Source: a phage
Sequence record: PZ091942.1
Strand: one strand, 5' to 3'
DNA: 64,000 nt
Below the pieces are notes generated by a model. That model was not told the DNA's origin. It ran no database searches and saw only the letters and a program-made list of their open reading frames with translations. Shown piece after piece: positions 3,479 to 39,976 of the stretch (positions are counted from its first letter, which is position 1; every line of letters starts with the position of its first letter). The position numbers were made by a program, and so were the translations under genes.

Positions 3479-5020
3479 TTAGTAACTCGAATTCCATCTG
3501 TTAATATTTTCTTGATAAAGCGACGAGCTACCATAGCTAGCGTCATGCTTAGACCGACCTCTGTGTGTAACAGAACACGCTGAATATCGCATTGCATCCA
3601 TAAGGTCATCATGTTCTTTAATAATCTTACCAACTTTTCGATGGTAACGTGCTTTCTCTTCAAAGAGCTTAGCACATGAGGTAGTATTAAAGATTTTGAA
3701 TCGACCTGACATCATACGTTCACGAATATCAGTAATTCCTGGCTCCACAAAGAAGTTCTTCTTACCATCCATTCCGATCTTGTTATGGAAGGTCTCACTT
3801 TGTACGTTAACACCTGCATTTTTATAGAATTGAGCTACAGAAGCACCACTACCCTTCTCGGTATTGTCCGCATCATGAGGTAGTATCACTGGAATCCACT
3901 GTCCACGTCCGTTAATTGCAGGAGCATGATACACTGGAGTGAAGCCGCTTTCTTTATAGCAGTCATAAACGTAGATTGTATCGGTGTTCGCATCGTATGC
4001 TGACCATACAGCTGCCGTCGGGTGATCAATACCAATATCAATGGCACATACGCGTTTCCATGTCTCAGGAATTTCAAACGGGTCACACTTAATTGAATCA
4101 TCAGATACATCGTAAATCAAACCTGAACCCAACAGAGGCATACCTTTAGAGCGCATTTCTAATTGCCACGCTGGAATACCTTCAGTCATATCTTTAATAT
4201 CTTGTTCAGAGATGTGTCCACCTATATCGACATGTGCATCCCACCAAGAAGCGTTCTGGAAATACAGAGAACCTGTGTTCTCGTCCCCTTCACCTTTCAT
4301 AAACTTGTCCACCAGCTCTGTTAAACCGTTCTCTGGTGTTGCTGTAATAGTAACTAAACCTTTAGTAGTAAGTGTACGTGTAACGCACTGAGAGAAAATT
4401 GCCATACTTTCGTAAGGATCTTCTTCGTCCAGCCAAATATAGTCCACTGTAGCACCCATTAATGTGTGTTCACCCTGTTGGGTAGAACGGAATTCTAACG
4501 TACTCAGCCCATCGAATTCACCTCTAGCGTTTTGGTGCTTGATTTGTACGATTTGTAATTTATTACCATCTCGTTCAATTGTGTCTATGACAATTGCATC
4601 ACGAGGAATAACTCCTGTTCCTATTAGGTTGGTGTCCTTTCCGATTGGTGTACCAAACAACTCCTTTTGCAATACCTTTCTTGTAGAGTCCCCTGTAATC
4701 CCTACTGCCCAAGCCAATATGGGTCGATTAAATCTATATCCTGTCCACCAAGTTGGATAGCGACCTGTGACATGACAAGCAAACTCGTATGCCTCGCTGT
4801 AAGATTTACCAACACGGTTCGCTGCACACAAAAATCTAAAGCGATGCTTCAATCCTGCTGCATAAAACTCTTTCTGAAACTGGTATGCTTTGAAAGCTAG
4901 AATCCTATTATACTTTCTCCATTGATCTCTATCCTTCAGCATTTCAAGCAGAGCCTTTTTCTCCTCTGTCGTAAGCTTGTCTCCAGTTAGTGCTTCATAT
5001 ATTTCTTTATCTAATGACAT
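3479..5020 (-). CDS. terL: terminase large subunit
   Basis: Track ORF 3479..5149 trimmed to internal ATG at 5020 with GGAGGA SD; Walker-A-like AANRVGKS; C-terminal nuclease-like acidic motifs. Confidence 0.85.
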   Translation of the reverse strand: MSLDKEIYEALTGDKLTTEEKKALLEMLKDRDQWRKYNRILAFKAYQFQKEFYAAGLKHRFRFLCAANRVGKSYSEAYEFACHVTGRYPTWWTGYRFNRPILAWAVGITGDSTRKVLQKELFGTPIGKDTNLIGTGVIPRDAIVIDTIERDGNKLQIVQIKHQNARGEFDGLSTLEFRSTQQGEHTLMGATVDYIWLDEEDPYESMAIFSQCVTRTLTTKGLVTITATPENGLTELVDKFMKGEGDENTGSLYFQNASWWDAHVDIGGHISEQDIKDMTEGIPAWQLEMRSKGMPLLGSGLIYDVSDDSIKCDPFEIPETWKRVCAIDIGIDHPTAAVWSAYDANTDTIYVYDCYKESGFTPVYHAPAINGRGQWIPVILPHDADNTEKGSGASVAQFYKNAGVNVQSETFHNKIGMDGKKNFFVEPGITDIRERMMSGRFKIFNTTSCAKLFEEKARYHRKVGKIIKEHDDLMDAMRYSACSVTHRGRSKHDASYGSSSLYQENINRWNSSY

Positions 5021-5087
5021 GTTTCCTCCAATTGAAAATAAAAAAGGGAGAGATCCCTCGCGAAAAGAACCCTCCCCTTTAATCCTA

Positions 5088-5555
5088 TTAACTCTCGTCC
5101 GCTTCCTCCTCCTTTTCAGCGTCCTCAGAGTCCTCTGGAGGTAGCACATCTGTACCTAATGCTCCAGCCAAGAAGTCCTTGATTTGTGCGTTCAACGAAT
5201 CCTCGTTAATTACATTCTCGTCCTCAATCTTAATCTCAACAGAAGCTGCCTTCGGATATACCAGATCTGCAACTTTACTTGCAGCCTTGAATCTAAGATC
5301 AGGTGGAATATTTGGGTCTTCATAAATTTGAATCAGCACTTCATCAGGGGACAGATGACTTGCAGCAACTCGGTCCAACATGAGCTGTGTCAACTTACCT
5401 CTACTACCTTTGGGTCGTCCGAACTTATTTCCCTTTTGGAACTTCCCTGTGCTTGGCTCCATACCACGGCTTTCCAATTCATCAGTTACACCGGGTAATC
5501 TTCCTGTAACCTCAGCTACCTGTGCAGGTGTGAGTTCTCCTTTTTCTCCAAACAT
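5088..5555 (-). CDS. terminase small subunit (putative)
   Basis: 155 aa ORF immediately upstream of terL; GAAGGAG SD; acidic C-terminus. Confidence 0.5.
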   Translation of the reverse strand: MFGEKGELTPAQVAEVTGRLPGVTDELESRGMEPSTGKFQKGNKFGRPKGSRGKLTQLMLDRVAASHLSPDEVLIQIYEDPNIPPDLRFKAASKVADLVYPKAASVEIKIEDENVINEDSLNAQIKDFLAGALGTDVLPPEDSEDAEKEEEADES

Positions 5556-5620
5556 TGTATACTCCTTCTACATTATCGTTATAACAAAAAGCCTCCCACT
5601 GAAGGAGGCAACACCTTTTA

Positions 5621-6280: not shown

Positions 6281-6530
6281 TCTCTCCTTCAGTGTCAGTG
6301 TTATCACTATAACGATAATCTTTAAATGTCTCAGCCTTGTAGGACACAAAGCATCTCATGTACAACCAGCCCAATGAACTAAGGTCCATCGTAGCATCAA
6401 AATCTTCGTCGTCGTCTAAGTCTACCAATCTACCCAAACAACTCAATACTTCTCCTCCTTCTTCAAATACAAATGCACATTTTTCAGTGCGGAAGTAAGG
6501 AATCAACTCTGATAAAAAGTCTAGAATCAT
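6270..6530 (-). CDS. hypothetical protein (86 aa)
   Basis: Track ORF 6270..6563 (TTG start) trimmed to ATG at 6530 with GAGGAGAT SD. Confidence 0.45.
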   Translation of the reverse strand: MILDFLSELIPYFRTEKCAFVFEEGGEVLSCLGRLVDLDDDEDFDATMDLSSLGWLYMRCFVSYKAETFKDYRYSDNTDTEGENDE

Positions 6531-6823
6531 TTTATATCTCCTCTGATATAAGAGAGCAATCAACCCATAAAGGCGTACTCATCTAAAGGCCCACCCATGT
6601 ATGAACCCATGTACGCTGATGTAAAGGGGACTTCATAAAGGCCATGTCACATTAAGGCATACCCATTAAGGCTTATCCACCCATGTACTGAATCTCAACT
6701 TACCACATTCCTTGCACTTCCATGTTGATAGGTAGAGACCATGTATTCTTTCATCCCCGTAAGCTTTACGAAGAAGATAGTAATTGTGCTTACACTTCAT
6801 CCGTCTAAATACTTTAATTAGAT

Positions 6824-6970
6824 TCATTCCATCTCCCGTAAAGCTTTAGTTAGCATCATTACCAACGTAGCTGCATCTGAGCGTTCTGTGTAATGGAGGA
6901 AAGGATTGGTAGCCTTCTTTAAGGCCTTCTCAAGTTCAATGTTAATGAGTTCTTTAGTGCTGAGATTCAT
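6824..6970 (-). CDS. hypothetical small protein (48 aa)
   Basis: Internal ATG of track ORF 6824..7147 with AAGG SD; first ORF of the minus-strand late block. Confidence 0.3.
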   Translation of the reverse strand: MNLSTKELINIELEKALKKATNPFLHYTERSDAATLVMMLTKALREME

Positions 6971-7714
6971 ACTTAACCTTATATATAAGAGTTTAAAATA
7001 CAGATTTATAAAAAATAAAGATGTATATATCTGTTTAAAATTCTGATTTGACCGAGTGGACCTAGCCCCTCCGCGAGTGTTTCCTAAAAAGGGGGAGTCC
7101 TCATTTAAAAAAGGGTTATTGGCAATGCCTTTACATCCTTTCCCCACGTTCCAGCGTTTCCCCGTACCTACTCCCCGTTATTCTTTCCCCGTGTATACTA
7201 CCCAATACATTACCTACCCGTTTATTTAGTACCCCTTTAAAGAGTAGGAGAAAGGCTAGTCGCTGATAAGGCCAACTGATTAGTCTGCTAATAATGCCAT
7301 TAATGATGGTCACCACTCCCCATAGTTTGATTGTAAATAGTTTCAATAGTGATTGTTATGAGTGCAATAATGATGTATATATTAATCAAGTGGATGATTG
7401 TGTTTCTTTTAATTATTTCCTTTTTCAGCGTTCTTTTATTCTTTTTCTTTTAACGTTTGATGTTTGAGTAATGCTATTAATAGTTAACTAATTATTTAAG
7501 TGGTATATTATTACCGCACTATCTTGCTATGTTTCCCCGTGGTCTGTCCTGCGGTTGGGTGTTCCCCGTTCGTCCTGGTCTGTTGGTCTGCTACCCGTAG
7601 GATTAGTGTTATAAAGTAACAATAGTCAGTAAGATAATCCCCTGAATGTAGAAAGTTTAGTAAATTAAATTTCTTTAGTTTTCAGTAAGATGCGAGAAAG
7701 TTAGAAAATAGTTG

Positions 7715-7742
7715 GTTGACGGTCTTTTCCTTTATTATATAG
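7715..7742 (+). promoter_or_regulatory. sigma70-type early promoter (TTGACG-16-TATAGT)
   Basis: -35 TTGACG 7715-7720, -10 TATAGT 7737-7742, AT-rich upstream; about 45 nt before first plus-strand gene. Confidence 0.5.
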
Positions 7743-7787
7743 TGGCGATTGTAGTTTGTAGTTTTCATCAACCAGAAGGAATATCAA

Positions 7788-8660
7788 ATGTCTAAAGTAG
7801 CAATTAACCAATTGAACAAAGCAAACGAAAGTCTTTCCTCTTTAGGCTTAACCGTTGGTAGTCCTGATGCGTGGATGGAAAACGAAAGCGCACGTAAAGG
7901 ATTCAAAAACTCAATCATGTTGGCTTGCTTGATCATCAATTCTACTGCGAACGCTTTACAGTGTGAAGATGAAAGCACGTTCAAAGAAAACGGTTTTACC
8001 GATATGCAGGACGCTATTAATTGTTACATTCAGGCAAATTTAGACAGTTGGAATCAGAAAGATTGGCCGGAATCATGCCGCGATGTGAAAGCTGAATTAT
8101 CCCGCTTGTCTGTCATGGTTGAAGCATGGAACAAGAAAAATAAGAAACAGCCAATCAAGCCCACTGTTGCAAGTAAGATTATGAAGTCTATTAATCTGGC
8201 AAGTTATGCACTGGTTGCAGCAATCGGTGTTAGTGCACTGGTAACTTCTCTTTCTGATAAGGCTGTGGCTAGTCCTACTCCTGCAACTGATGCGGCTAGT
8301 GTCTTCGTTAGTTCCATCAATAAAGGTTGGATGATTTGCAACGGTGCAGATAGTGACACTAATCAAGTAGTTTTAAAGGTTAAATTTAGTAACGTTTCCC
8401 GTAGTGGTCTGGTTGTTAGTACCAAAACATTGGACAATCAGGGCAATGAAGATTTAGTCTTAAAGCGTAGTGATAATGATCCCGAACTAGTCACATTTGG
8501 TACTGTACAACATTACAGCCATGCGAAAGCTGTCACGAATCTGGTGAGTTATGGTCCGGTTAATGAGTCGATGATCGCTACCACTGTTTATAATAATGCT
8601 GATAACGCTGTTTATACCGTTCACGTTAATTTAGCCAACTGTATTAAGGCTAGTAAATAA
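7788..8660 (+). CDS. hypothetical early protein (290 aa)
   Basis: ORF track; GAAGGAA SD; first gene of plus-strand block. Confidence 0.7.
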   Translation: MSKVAINQLNKANESLSSLGLTVGSPDAWMENESARKGFKNSIMLACLIINSTANALQCEDESTFKENGFTDMQDAINCYIQANLDSWNQKDWPESCRDVKAELSRLSVMVEAWNKKNKKQPIKPTVASKIMKSINLASYALVAAIGVSALVTSLSDKAVASPTPATDAASVFVSSINKGWMICNGADSDTNQVVLKVKFSNVSRSGLVVSTKTLDNQGNEDLVLKRSDNDPELVTFGTVQHYSHAKAVTNLVSYGPVNESMIATTVYNNADNAVYTVHVNLANCIKASK

Positions 8661-9418: not shown

Positions 9419-9494
9419 GCTTAATCTTTCTCCTTTATTGTGCCGTGGTCATGCCTATGGTCATAATCTATCTGATGCTTTAAAACCTCCCTAT

Positions 9495-9517
9495 AAGCCT
9501 CTTAATGAGGCTTTTTT
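9495..9517 (+). terminator. rho-independent terminator
   Basis: Stem AAGCCTC/GAGGCTT, loop TTAAT, followed by TTTTTT. Confidence 0.6.
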
Positions 9518-9679
9518 CATTTCTAAGGTGATTGCATACCTTACTACCTTTTAGCTCGCTATAGTGCGTTTTAGGCCGCTAAATATTGCTTTACAAGCCG
9601 TTTCCTATGATGTATCACGTTCGCCCGCTCTTTTACCTCCCTCATAGTGAAAAAGTTTAAAATATTTTGCTTTCCCCTA

Positions 9680-9707
9680 TTGCAACCTCAACTGATTGGC
9701 GTATACT
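9680..9707 (+). promoter_or_regulatory. candidate sigma70 promoter (TTGCAA-16-TATACT)
   Basis: Hexamers read directly; no ORF downstream. Confidence 0.35.
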
Positions 9708-9805
9708 CATTTCTATCGGGTACGATGTAAAACATACAAGGCAAGGAAACTTGCCCCGCTCTTTAAAAATCAGGCTAGAAAGTGAAAATATTCTTAAAAA
9801 GAGTA

Positions 9806-9833
9806 TTGACAGCCGGAAAGCCTGAACTATAAT
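9806..9833 (+). promoter_or_regulatory. near-consensus sigma70 promoter (TTGACA-16-TATAAT) with AT-rich UP-like region
   Basis: -35 9806-9811, -10 9828-9833; downstream ATG opens only a 7-codon frame. Confidence 0.6.
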
Positions 9834-10542
9834 GAGTGTAGAAAGACAAGATGACCGCTCAAGTAACTCCCTAGTGAGTGAAGCAAGTCAGACGTAGGCA
9901 GGCGGATACCATGCCCCCAAATAATCGTGGGTTAACTGATTATCAAGCGGTGTTATGTGAGCCGCACGCTCTTTAAAAACATGATTTGTCTTAAAGGTGG
10001 CGGTGACGTCATTACTATAAGGCGCTCAGTTAATCGGTAGAATTGATTCCTGATTCATACGTGACGCAGGCGGACAATAAGCAATATCAATAAGCCTTAT
10101 TTGTTCGATACTTTCAAAAGATTAATGCTTGAAAGCGTACTAGATTCCTAAAAGACAAATCAGACTTATCATCTTGCCCTTTCGCATAGATTCACGCGAG
10201 ATAAGGGAAAAGAATAAAAGAAGATGATAAAAAAGAGGTTGCAAACGTGGTTAAGATAGTTCATACTAACCACAAGTTAACAAAACAACGTTAACTAGTT
10301 CCCAAATCAACGTATCGCGGGAAAGGTGGCACATAGTGCAGCGAGTAGTTCGGGAGTAGGCGCCCCGTTAATGAATAAGTAAGCCTTTAATGATGCAGTG
10401 ATTAGCAGACACTATAAAAGGCTAAAACGCTCTTTAACAATATGAATCATGATTTTAGCCTCATCGCTTGATCTTCAATCAAATAAAGCTGATTGATATA
10501 TCCTCCCAATAGCGGGAACGACGAAAAAGATTAAAAAAGCGA

Positions 10543-10571
10543 TTGACAGCTAAAACATCATGGTCCATAAT
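10543..10571 (+). promoter_or_regulatory. near-consensus sigma70 promoter (TTGACA-17-CATAAT) with AT-rich upstream
   Basis: -35 10543-10548, -10 10566-10571; no start codon with SD in the next ~120 nt. Confidence 0.6.
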
Positions 10572-32093: not shown

Positions 32094-33884
32094 ATGTCAA
32101 AGATCATCCTAGGAGATACAGGTTGTAAAGAATGTATCTCTCATGGTCGTGATAAGACCCACAATCACATGATTCTCTTCCGAAATGAAGAGTCCGGTGA
32201 AGAGTGGGGCAGTTGTAATCGTTGTGGTAGTTATGAAGTTTTCGAAAAGGGAACAACTCCTACACCGAATGAGAAGAAAGAACTATCCCCTGAAGAACTC
32301 CGAGAGATCTTAGACGATTGCTTAGAGCTACCTCAGGGTGAGCTTACTCGTCGTTTGATTCCTAAAGCTGTCTCTGAACGGTATGAATGTCGTATTGGTT
32401 TAAGTCAGACAGATGGGCAAACTCCTGACAGTTATTTCTTCCCTCGTGAACGTGATGGAAACATTGTTGGTTATGAAGTTAAGCTTCTGGACAGCAAGAA
32501 GTTCTATTACATTGGCAGTGTTAAAGAAGCCGACTTGTTCGGCATGGCTCAAGCACAGCGTGGTGATGTATACAACAAGAAGCTCTTCATCTTTGAAGAC
32601 CCACTTTCTTGTATGTCTGGTTTCCATGTGCTCACTGCGTTCACGAACGCTACAAACATCAAACCTGCTTGTGTATCTCTACCGTTCGGTGCAGGTTCAA
32701 TCTCTTCCGTTCTATCACGTAACCGTGACTTCTTGAACGGTTTTGAGGAGATTGTACTCTGCATGGACAATGATGATGCGGGTGAGATTGCATTAACTAA
32801 AGGTCGTGCATTATATCCACATGTTAAGTTTGCTCGTATTCCGAAAGGAACCTTCACTTATAATGGTCAAGAGAAGGAGATCAAAGATGCGAACGACATG
32901 TTACTCGCTGGTCGAGGTCAAGAGCTATTCAACAATCTGAAATACTCAGCGAAGCGGGAATCGCCTGCTGGTGCTGTTACTGTCTTTGATTGCTTAGAAG
33001 ATGCTCTGAAGAAAGCGGAATGGGGTATTCCTTATCCGTGGAAAACTCTGAATGAGATGACCTTCGGCATTCGTTGGGGAGAGATGGTTGCTATCGGTGG
33101 TGGTGTTGGTTCAGGTAAAACCTTAATCGCACACGAACTGGTAGCATGGCTTTGCCTTGAACATGGTTTTAATGGTGGTGGCTTCTTCTTGGAAGAGAAG
33201 GTAGGCATGTCTGTTAAGAACATTGCAGGTAAGTCAGCATCTGTACCTTTCCACCGACCTGATGTTGAGTATGAGGAAGCTCAGTTACGTGACGAAGCAC
33301 TTCGTTACGCTGATAAGTTCTTCTTGTATGACAACTTCGGACAGAACGAGTGGGATGATATTAAGCAGTGTATTCGCTTCTGGGTAGTCGAGAATCAGTG
33401 TAAGTTTATCATTCTTGATAACATTACTGCGCTAGTCTCTCACCTAACTCCGTCTGAGGTGAATACAGAAATCAGTAAGATTGCTTCAGAGCTTGCTGGT
33501 ATGTGTAAGGAATTAGACTTCACTGCTTTTGTATTATCTCACTTGAATGCTCCGGCAGGTGGTGCTCCTCACGAAGAAGGTGGACAGGTGAAAGAAGTTC
33601 AGTTCACTGGTTCACGTTCACTAATGCGTTGGTGTCAGTGCATCATCGGTTTTGAGCGAGATAAGCAAGCTGATGGGTTAGGCAAGAACTTGTCAATCAT
33701 ACGACTCCTCAAAGAGCGTAACTATGGTCAGACAGGTGTTTGCTACACCAAGTACATCAATGAAACAGGTCGACTTGTAGAACGAGAAGATCATGAAGTT
33801 GATGAAGCTAATCCGTTTGTCTTGACCAATGGTGAGGATGCAGCTTCTCTGCTCACACAAGACGGGGAGGCACGACCTTGGTAA
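32094..33884 (+). CDS. T7 gp4-like primase-helicase
   Basis: ORF track; GGAGG SD; N-terminal Zn-ribbon (CKEC...CNRC), [14 protein letters not shown], Walker [10 protein letters not shown], Walker B FIILDN. Confidence 0.9.
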
Positions 33885-39354: not shown

Positions 39355-39976
39355 AGCAATGGGTAGTGACAAATCTGTAGTCAACGCAGCTAGGGTATCT
39401 TTCGGTGTTGTTCGAGAAGGTGACTTAAATGAGAGAGACACAAAACTTATCAATTTCCTTGCACGGGAAAAACACTGCACGCCTTTCCGTCATCCGACAA
39501 TTAGCTTCCGATGCAAAGCGCCAATCGCAATTGCGAGACAGTTGGGCAAGCATCAAGTTGGATTCTCGTGGAACGAAATGTCCCGGAGGTATAAAGATGG
39601 AGCAGTTGAATGCTTTGTCCCTGAAGAGATTTTTGAAAGACCTTCAGACCTCCATGCAGGTTCGGGGAGCCTCCTTATCGGAGCCAATGGTGAAGCAGCA
39701 AAAGTAGCCTTTGAACGTGCTTATACTTTAGCTGTTCAGACATACGAAGGGTTGTTATCAGAAGGTGTTGCACCAGAACAAGCTCGATTCGTATTGCCTC
39801 AGGGCATGATCACTGAGTGGGTCTGGACAGGTTCTTTATTCGGTTGGTCAGAGTTATGTCGTCAGCGACTGTCAGACCACGCTCAGTATGAAGTACGAGT
39901 GTTTGCATCAACTATTGATGAAGAGCTTCGTAAAATCTACCCAATCTCTTGGGATGCATTACGTGAAGCCCACTAA
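39323..39976 (+). CDS. thyX: flavin-dependent thymidylate synthase (ThyX)-like protein
   Basis: TTG start with AAAGGAA SD; AARVSF, TPFRH, KAPIAIARQ, NEMSRRY, RFVLPQ...WT, SDHAQYE align with T. maritima ThyX; RHR signature reads KHQ. Confidence 0.7.
   Translation: MNEQLQATLIEAMGSDKSVVNAARVSFGVVREGDLNERDTKLINFLAREKHCTPFRHPTISFRCKAPIAIARQLGKHQVGFSWNEMSRRYKDGAVECFVPEEIFERPSDLHAGSGSLLIGANGEAAKVAFERAYTLAVQTYEGLLSEGVAPEQARFVLPQGMITEWVWTGSLFGWSELCRQRLSDHAQYEVRVFASTIDEELRKIYPISWDALREAH

Follow-up and report, generated by a model that had tools for sequence, protein, structure and literature searches.

Phages of the phiEco32 group end in short direct repeats. In phiEco32 itself, a direct terminal repeat of 193 bp was located with restriction profiles together with subcloning and primer walking (Savalia et al. 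2008 as cited in PMC9965538), that of YF01, also 193 bp, is visible on full-length nanopore reads (PMC9965538), and sharp read drop-offs at the ends of SU10 point to a 193-bp duplex repeat and blunt termini (PMC4281155). T7-like phages and the phages of this family form concatemers with one repeat per junction, at which terminase cuts at specific sites, a second repeat copy then being synthesised to give each packaged genome one per end (PMC9965538, PMC4281155, PMC10438801). It is still poorly defined how the terminases of phages with a direct terminal repeat (DTR), i.e. T7-like, N4-like and Kuravirus phages, find the concatemer junction and come to nick it at two positions ~200 bp from each other. 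Here we describe the corresponding region of sequence record PZ091942.1, of which a stretch of 64,000 nucleotides was analysed (hereafter the window), with particular attention to the 1.05 kb between positions 6560 and 7610, where short words of a single orientation are repeated within and on both sides of a probable terminal repeat. On the sequence evidence set out below, we put the probability at about one half that the packaging machinery binds these polar arrays as sets of weak sites, with terminase cutting at the junction.

The terminal repeat and the probable genome ends

A megablast search with positions 6400-7900 returned 97 matching phage records, all of them Escherichia/Shigella phages of the phiEco32 group (Kuravirus, Gordonclarkvirinae). 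By sequence similarity, the window is a Kuravirus (phiEco32-like) podovirus genome, with phiEco32 in the orientation of the reverse complement of the window plus strand, and the interval of interest is its concatemer junction. To the left of the junction the minus strand carries both terminase genes and several small genes, and to its right the plus strand carries early genes, so that the two sets are divergent when joined. The joined forms of phiEco32 and YF01 were rebuilt (right end, one repeat copy, left end) and then aligned to the window. Their repeats show whole-length homology to positions 7064-7257 (194 bp), with ~86-90% identity in the query block spanning the DTR, which is also alignable in 16 further relatives. 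The boundaries read ...GGACCT|AGCCCC... (left) and ...AAAGGCT|AGTCGC... (right) in the window, and ...GTGCCT|AGCCGC... and ...AAAGGCT|AGCACT..., respectively, in phiEco32, with identical register in the window, phiEco32 and YF01. Both boundaries thus follow the same (G/C)CT and precede A(G), at a spacing of 193-194 bp, and the left boundary of metagenomic relatives (GGCT|AGCG) has the same pattern.

Because the window carries a single DTR copy at the homologue of the mapped repeats, the assembly is read here as having collapsed the concatemer junction, which is also the case for many Kuravirus records deposited as circles, and the physical genome ends are probably at 7064 and 7257. The first-pass annotation had called the repeats of this interval typical of packaging (pac or cos) signals, genome termini or origin iterons, with termini mapping elsewhere as the outcome that would speak against it; the relatives' mapped repeat aligns to 7064-7257, which holds the first YCCCCGT cluster, and the genome-termini part of that proposal is therefore upheld by homology. 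The pac/cos part is not: since relatives have exact, blunt, duplicated ends (PMC9965538, PMC4281155), the junction would be neither pac nor cos in the strict sense and would belong to the T7-like DTR type. The probable ends allow correct orientation and annotation of this genome and of circularly deposited Kuravirus records, which matters for therapy phages.

Conservation was assessed across 18 junctions, namely those of the window and of 17 relatives including the distant EP335/Bas89 and Bas86/MLP3/TH34 lineages. Within the DTR, a core at 7083-7115 (CCTAAAAAGGGGGAGTCCTCATTTAAAAAAGGG) is near-invariant across these junctions and carries the TAAAAA(A)GGG direct repeat that has been reported for the SU10 terminal repeat (PMC4281155); for the YF01 repeat, a 'highly conserved region ~130-170' is described (PMC9965538). 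Just outside the left boundary lies an invariant block at 7033-7063 (GTTTAAAATTCTGATTTGACCGAGTGGACCT; column identity 0.97-1.0), which matches the SU10 'upstream region of CDS1' and is a candidate cleavage or recognition site, or part of a leftward promoter region. The boundaries, the genomic position, the internal TAAAAA(A)GGG repeat and the conserved core are accordingly common to the window and the phiEco32/Kuravirus DTR, the differences from phiEco32 being the repeat length (194 versus 193 bp) and a ~180-bp insertion outside the left boundary, which comprises an extra 48-amino-acid open reading frame (ORF) and a duplicated TATATA...TTTAAAAT block.

Some further observations concern the same region. 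The duplicated block, TATATA(AGAG/TCTG)TTTAAAAT(A/T)C(A/T)GATTT, lies at 6982-7007 and 7024-7049, just outside the left DTR boundary; the duplication is also found in EC.W2-6, 172-1 and NJ01, is not found in phiEco32 or YF01, and overlaps a region proposed by the SU10 authors as a possible sigma-70 promoter driving the left-end genes (PMC4281155). A 17-bp AT-rich duplication at 6995-7027 was the sole detection by Tandem Repeats Finder, which reported none of the arrays described below, their units being too degenerate outside the cores. The sequence TAATGTA, which is the core of gp36-dependent middle/late promoters, occurs within the DTR at 7206-7212 on the minus strand, directed at the left-end genes. 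Relatives differ at this site (TAATGAA in phiEco32 and YF01, TAATGTA in SGF2, Bas90, 1-6af and PGN6866), and a gp36 promoter was rejected as an explanation of the region. Finally, the SU7 record (MZ342906) starts mid-way through sequence that aligns to the terminal repeat of its relatives, and the published 53-bp SU7 repeat, which its authors flagged with caution, is probably an underestimate because the deposited genome begins inside that repeat.

Word arrays and their conservation

The plus strand of the window has seven copies of the word TCCCCGT in 64 kb; six of them lie between 6754 and 7570, and the minus strand of the region has none. For 6560-7610, the six copies observed compare with 0.03 expected (Poisson p ~3e-13). 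Over the same interval the broader word [AC]CCC[AG]T is found 14 times on the plus strand and never on the minus strand, against ~0.65 expected, and in the remaining window at ~0.6 per kb per strand. The repeats are real and highly non-random, and form three one-directional arrays, to the left of, within and to the right of the DTR, with a pitch of ~14-16 bp.

The internal array (7139-7221, plus strand) lies wholly inside the DTR and consists of six YCCCCGT/CTACCCRT sites at a pitch of 13-17 bp: TTTCCCCACGT at 7139-7149, which is irregular with one extra base; TTTCCCCGT at 7157-7165; CTCCCCGT at 7171-7178; TTTCCCCGT again at 7184-7192; the degenerate CTACCCAAT at 7198-7206; and CTACCCGT at 7214-7221 (site starts for pitch 7143, 7160, 7173, 7187, 7201 and 7216). 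The left-hand array (6563-6690, plus strand; pitch 14-16 bp) combines six T[AT]AAGG words (6568, 6584, 6622, 6636, 6652 and 6666) with five interleaved ACCCAT words (6563, 6593, 6605, 6661 and 6679). Here CCCATGTA, at 6594, 6606 and 6680, accounts for three of its four plus-strand copies in the window, with none on the minus strand, and CATTAAGGC, at 6650 and 6664, has no other copy in the window; this part lies 375-500 bp outside the left DTR boundary. The right-hand array (7532-7598, plus strand) has three sites at 29-bp spacing, TTTCCCCGT at 7532-7540, TTCCCCGT at 7562-7569 and CTACCCGT at 7591-7598 (starts 7535, 7564 and 7593), with which three GGTCTG copies (7541, 7577 and 7585) are interleaved. 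Further copies between the arrays are CCCCAT at 7318 and TCCCCGT at 6754. All three CCCATGTA, both CATTAAGGC and the three GGTCTG copies reported by the first-pass annotation are present, and its count of eight same-orientation YCCCCGT copies is correct if the irregular TTTCCCCACGT is included; its inventory, whilst made up of real copies, missed those at 7198-7206, 6754 and 7318 as well as the left-hand T[AT]AAGG/ACCCAT array. The DTR is already known for the genus. The polar YCCCCGT, ACCCAT and TWAAGG arrays were not found described in the literature searched, which covered Kuravirus and its packaging to the exclusion of both primary phiEco32 papers; a junction with T7-like polar arrays would not surprise a phage specialist, being an expected kind of feature.

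Across the 18 junctions, [AC]CCC[AG]T occurs 198 times on the plus strand and three times on the minus strand, at shared places, and the T[AT]AAGG[CGT] word of the left-hand array 93 times on the plus strand and never on the minus strand, at a pitch of 14-16 bp. Position and orientation of the internal array are kept in 13 close relatives, and within the DTR conservation is higher in motif columns than in spacer columns (0.97 versus 0.865; Mann-Whitney p = 0.009). Distant lineages have variant words (CCCCGTG in EP335 and Bas89; TACCCAT/TACCCGT in Bas86, MLP3 and TH34), each of which occurs in both the internal and the right-hand arrays of its lineage with number, polarity and pitch retained, and copy number and pitch are also retained in lineages whose flanks have diverged to ~65% identity. 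Judged by these alignments, selection acts on the words themselves. Metagenomic relatives, whose putative small terminase is 66-74% identical, retain the TATATATAAGAG block, the left boundary, the GGGGGAGTCCTCA core of the DTR, ACCCGTTTATTT near the right boundary, the AT-rich CTTTTTCAG(C/A)GTT block and the right-hand CCCGT array, with the CCCGT array and ACCCGTTTATTT retained at 74% small-terminase identity. From the sequences compared, the strongest constraint is on the boundaries, the 7033-7063 block and the 7083-7115 core; in the arrays it is on polarity, number and pitch, and less so on exact sequence. The comparison did not extend to Salmonella phage 7-11, which is too divergent and for which no alignment was obtained.

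The same data bear on the possibility that the words have no sequence-specific function and are by-products of slippage or recombination at a mosaic hotspot (e.g. gene-boundary linker repeats that shuffle small early genes), kept by descent. Such an origin would suit a left-hand region that is visibly mosaic, a window that is a hybrid of two lineages with its breakpoint in the junction region, and internal-array words that are replaced in distant relatives. It accords poorly with the strict polarity (198/3 and 93/0), with copy number and pitch that persist despite flanks at ~65% identity, with motif columns that are more conserved than spacers, and with the identical layout in the unrelated phage T7; we consider it the least probable of the explanations discussed here.

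Several other candidates were tried and set aside. A structured RNA element was ruled out by an Rfam scan of 6400-7900, which gave a noise match only (E 0.14), and by folding of the right array as RNA, of the repeat as single-stranded DNA and of the left array as RNA, none of which folded better than shuffled sequence (z -0.94, +1.04 and +1.39, respectively). The CCCATGTA words resemble AATGTA of the gp36 late promoters but sit on the strand opposite to the genes, the homologue of the late promoter being at 5569-5575 on the minus strand. A DnaA-box-like sequence, TTATCCACC, is present as one copy at 6672-6680 and is not conserved in phiEco32. A further candidate is a G-quadruplex that the G-rich complementary strand might form, with loops of 9-15 nt; in distant lineages GGG runs are all that is retained.

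Most of the left-hand array occupies the 135-bp gap between two small genes, its last units overlapping the 3' end of one of them (6666-6827, minus strand). This gene encodes a 53-amino-acid Cys/His-rich protein (MNLIKVFRRMKCKHNYY...CKECGK...; C-x-H...C-x-x-C; phrog_7696, E 5e-16) that is kept in close and distant relatives throughout the group, with annotated homologues in Ptacy1479, phiEc_1, Bas89, NJ01 and Bas86. Its last codons and stop codon include the third CCCATGTA and the second CATTAAGGC, and the TCCCCGT at 6754 encodes Y-G-D-E within it; three of the repeat copies listed in the first-pass annotation overlap this real coding sequence. A second ORF (6824-6970, minus strand; 48 amino acids), which is present in some relatives only and forms part of the ~180-bp insertion relative to phiEco32, has an annotated homologue in Ptacy1479 and gave no PHROG match. 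The description of this stretch as ~0.8 kb devoid of convincing ORFs consequently does not hold. The phiEco32 annotation phi32_1 (L003 296-496) uses another frame of the DNA homologous to ORF 6666-6827 and is probably a mis-annotation, since the 53-amino-acid frame is the one conserved group-wide.

The left-hand region is mosaic among relatives, in which phi32_2/3, GTCATCTTTGATGAC hairpins and extra ORFs are gained or lost between repeat units. A perfect hairpin, GTCATC-TTT-GATGAC, is found between left-array repeat units in phiEc_1, SGF2, Bas89 and Bas93 and is not found in the window. The left-array words CCCATAAAGGC and CATTAAGGC (6563-6672) resemble the T7 words CCCATAAAGAG, CCTAAGGT and CCTAAAG (T7 39620-39700), and both phages infect E. 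coli; the likeness may be coincidence or may reflect a shared host factor.

The right-hand array and its surroundings

Situated 275-340 bp beyond the right DTR boundary, the right-hand array is present in all Kuravirus lineages, and in SU7 and NC-B keeps 5-6 sites at a pitch of 14-16 bp. It is preceded by an AT-rich spacer at 7300-7500 (guanine plus cytosine (GC) content of 26% over 7300-7499), which includes a block, CTTTTTCAGCGT at 7423-7434, that is invariant in Kuravirus and persists as TTTCAG(C/A)GTT in the relatives L031 and L033, in which the small terminase is 66-74% identical. Just upstream of the array is a sigma-70-promoter-like element on the plus strand (7484-7511; TTAACT-16-TATTAT, 9/12, or alternatively an extended -10, TGGTATATT, at 7501-7509) that is nearly invariant in the alignment; lineage variants of TGGTATATT are TGGTAATTT, TGGAATAAT and TGGTAATTA, the last being a poor -10. 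Within the array TGGTC occurs three times on the plus strand and never on the minus strand in 60 bp, compared with 87 copies in 64 kb. TGGTC is one of the preferred recognition sites of T7 primase.

These features invite a reading as a terminal replication origin, in which the right (perhaps also the internal) array would supply iterons, 7300-7500 an unwinding element and 7484-7511 transcriptional activation of the kind found at the T7 primary origin, with priming at the three TGGTC words by a T7 gp4-like primase-helicase that moves rightward on the plus strand. The low GC content of 7300-7499 immediately beside the array, the conserved extended -10-like element at 7501-7509 and the one-sided TGGTC cluster would all be expected of such an origin, as would the primase-helicase encoded at 32094-33884 (plus strand), which is a clear T7 gp4 homologue (PDB 6n7i, 1q57 and 5ikn; E ~1e-33), and the GGTCTG pairs that are retained even in the distant relative L031. 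However, the L031 pair lies ~1.3 kb from the repeat and adjoins the first early gene; no initiator (Rep-type) gene was recognised in the window; and the argument assumes that the primase of this phage would share the T7 preference. Moreover, iterons are usually 17-22 bp long with helical phasing, as opposed to the 7-9 bp words at 14.5-bp pitch found here, and the words recur within and to the left of the DTR, where an origin is not needed. Whilst it is the foremost of the alternatives to a packaging role, we regard an origin as unlikely. A switch in GC skew at ~7200 is uninformative on this point, since it coincides with the switch in gene orientation. The primase-helicase has an extra N-terminal region of ~116 residues that lies outside the T7 gp4 match.

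The element at 7484-7511 could alternatively be an early promoter, with the right array as a leader or operator array for a phage or host regulator and the left array separating small early genes as a regulatory or boundary element. For this, the extended -10-like sequence is conserved and its variants (TGGTATATT, TGGTAATTT and TGGAATAAT) compensate in part, NJ01, 172-1, PGN6866 and Bas93 have a small ORF directly after the array and no TTGACG promoter there, and the left array occupies an intergenic gap. Nonetheless the leader folds no better than shuffled sequence and has no Rfam match, the TH34 variant, TAATTA, is without the critical last T of a -10, and the internal array has no upstream promoter in linear virion DNA, yet its words and polarity are identical. 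In addition, a strong canonical early promoter is already available at 7716-7743, and a transcriptional role for the arrays as a whole consequently appears improbable, with only their functionless descent rated below it.

That promoter (plus strand; TTGACG-16-TATAGT) is a sigma-70 promoter for the gene at 7788-8660 (plus strand), a homologue of phiEco32 early gene 128 situated to the right of the junction, and has its SU10 homologue in the early promoter 'ttgacagccttttcctttaatatatagt' that precedes CDS125. An IMG/VR scan with the gene-128 protein gave four loci only. Further to the right, an ORF-poor early region (9420-11600) contains a terminator-like hairpin at 9495-9513 followed by sigma-70 promoters at 9806-9833 (TTGACA-16-TATAAT, 12/12) and 10543-10571 (11/12), which correspond to the cluster reported between SU10 genes 120 and 121 (PMC4281155).

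Terminase and comparison with known packaging systems

A packaging role for the arrays would require a protein able to read them, for which the product of the gene at 5088-5555 (minus strand) is a candidate. This gene lies next to that of the large terminase (3479-5149, minus strand; Terminase_6N/6C). A profile of its homologues matches the small terminase in PDB 7joq (E 0.002) and, with E 0.16, that of PaP3 (6w7t); 15 of 31 homologues contain DUF5681; and the YF01 homologue is annotated as a putative small terminase, its authors having obtained an HHpred match of the homologue to the PaP3 small terminase (PMC9965538). A direct sequence search of the PDB with the product gave no match, its AlphaFold model is mediocre (predicted local distance difference test, pLDDT, 68), and a Foldseek comparison of the model with the PDB gave nothing significant, the PaP3 small terminase ranking twelfth with E 3. 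We therefore make the identification of 5088-5555 as the small terminase with modest confidence.

Directly 5' of the ATG of this gene at 5555 is a gp36-type late promoter core, TAATGTA (5569-5575, minus strand), the homologue of the SU10 late promoter 'gataatgtagaaggagtataaaatg'. The late operon was originally placed as starting at ~6594, which is not borne out; its true start is likely to be at ~5575, in the hairpin/TAATGTA region at 5569-5609 on the minus strand. In SU10, genes between the late promoter and the terminal repeat are described as early and sigma-70-driven (PMC4281155). A terminator-like hairpin, GCCTCC...GGAGGC with a T run (5609-5586, minus strand), precedes the TAATGTA at 5575-5569.

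In the mechanism that we consider the most likely, replication would generate head-to-tail concatemers with one DTR copy per junction, and terminase would assemble on the arrayed sites, the putative oligomeric small subunit (encoded 1.5 kb away) binding the CCCRT core with one DNA-binding domain per site. The arrays would in this way nucleate a directional nucleoprotein complex across the junction, which would position the large-subunit nuclease at the two (G/C)CT|A boundaries, where opposite strands would be nicked 193-194 bp apart. DNA synthesis would then duplicate the DTR such that every packaged genome received one copy per end, in T7 fashion, whilst the single polarity of the sites would specify the side of the junction on which the motor packages DNA.

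A number of points weigh against this proposal. The small-terminase assignment is weak (profile E 0.002, pLDDT 68, fold matches non-significant), and no protein binding to the array words is reported in the literature searched. Kuravirus lineages with different words have small terminases of at least 90% identity, with similarities that track physical linkage, and because of this identity co-variation between the protein and the motifs is not detectable. The end positions themselves rest on homology with the mapped ends of relatives. In the metagenomic relatives, at 66-74% small-terminase identity, most of the internal array is swapped for other words, so that the constraint on exact words is weaker than that on the GGGGGAGTCCTCA core. 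The window is, moreover, a natural hybrid, in which the left arm and left array are of the ECBP2/TH34 type (ACCCAT words, as in TH34 and Bas86) and the DTR and right array of the phiEco32/SGF2 type, placing a recombination breakpoint within the junction region; its small terminase is 99% identical to that of ECBP2 and 96% identical to that of TH34. To our knowledge, the function of the analogous T7 arrays was never established.

A stronger form of the packaging proposal would make the arrays a functional ruler, on whose words, spaced 13-16 bp apart, a phage protein (a ring-shaped small terminase or some other) would polymerise in one direction. Such an assembly would fix staggered nicks one repeat length apart and choose the direction of packaging, and the near-identical pitch in T7 would, by analogy, represent the convergent geometry of short-DTR phages. 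In a variant, the right array, the AT-rich block and TGGTC could constitute a terminal origin for a T7 gp4-like primase, coupling end replication to end maturation. Either version seems to us rather more doubtful than a simple origin, though ahead of a transcriptional role.

Comparison with described systems provides a context for these alternatives. Like origin iterons (plasmid or P4-type, or those of the T7 primary origin), the direct repeats here lie beside 200 bp of 26% GC and a promoter-like element and include T7-type primase words; unlike them, the words are much shorter, occur also within and beyond the repeat, and are accompanied by no initiator gene found in the window. Arrayed small-terminase sites for which binding has been demonstrated are known elsewhere, as the R sites of lambda cosB and the pacL/pacR boxes of SPP1. 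A small-terminase model has also been described for PaP3 (PMC7672466). The Kuravirus junction resembles these systems in having several short sites close to the probable cleavage position, suited to an oligomeric small terminase with one helix-turn-helix per subunit, and the putative Kuravirus small terminase is distantly similar to those of PaP3 and NV1. It differs in that the lambda, SPP1 and PaP3 systems give cohesive ends (cos) or headful cuts (pac), whereas Kuravirus phages have exact blunt direct repeats and arrays that are known from sequence alone.

The closest parallel is with T7, whose left end has 11 copies of CCTAAAG on one strand and none on the other, three copies lying in the 160-bp repeat and eight just beyond it at a 13-bp pitch, and at the right end further same-orientation CCTAAAG, CCTAAGG and CATAAAG words lie to the left of the right-hand repeat. 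These short-repeat arrays are said to have been named 'SRL/SRR' by Dunn & Studier in 1983, and we know of no function assigned to the T7 flanking repeats in the 40 years since. Both systems have short words of 7-9 bp in a single orientation, within the repeat and on both flanks of the junction, at similar pitch (13 bp in T7, 13-16 bp in Kuravirus) and between the genome end and the first early sigma-70 promoters, and in both concatemers are matured by cutting and duplication of a direct repeat. The words themselves differ (CCTAAAG in T7; YCCCCGT, ACCCRT and TWAAGG in Kuravirus), as do the lineages (Autographiviridae and Gordonclarkvirinae, respectively), with no homology of word or phage lineage; the right array lies ~275 bp from the repeat in the window but abuts it in T7; and transcription of the phiEco32 type relies on host polymerase with the phage sigma factor gp36, T7 RNA polymerase being absent. 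By this comparison, the Kuravirus junction is an analogue of the T7 junction, and not a homologue or a member of the same family. Kuravirus phages offer a second, independent system with the T7 layout, in which natural variants (word changes, array replacement and the hybrid present in this window) could guide work on binding and packaging.

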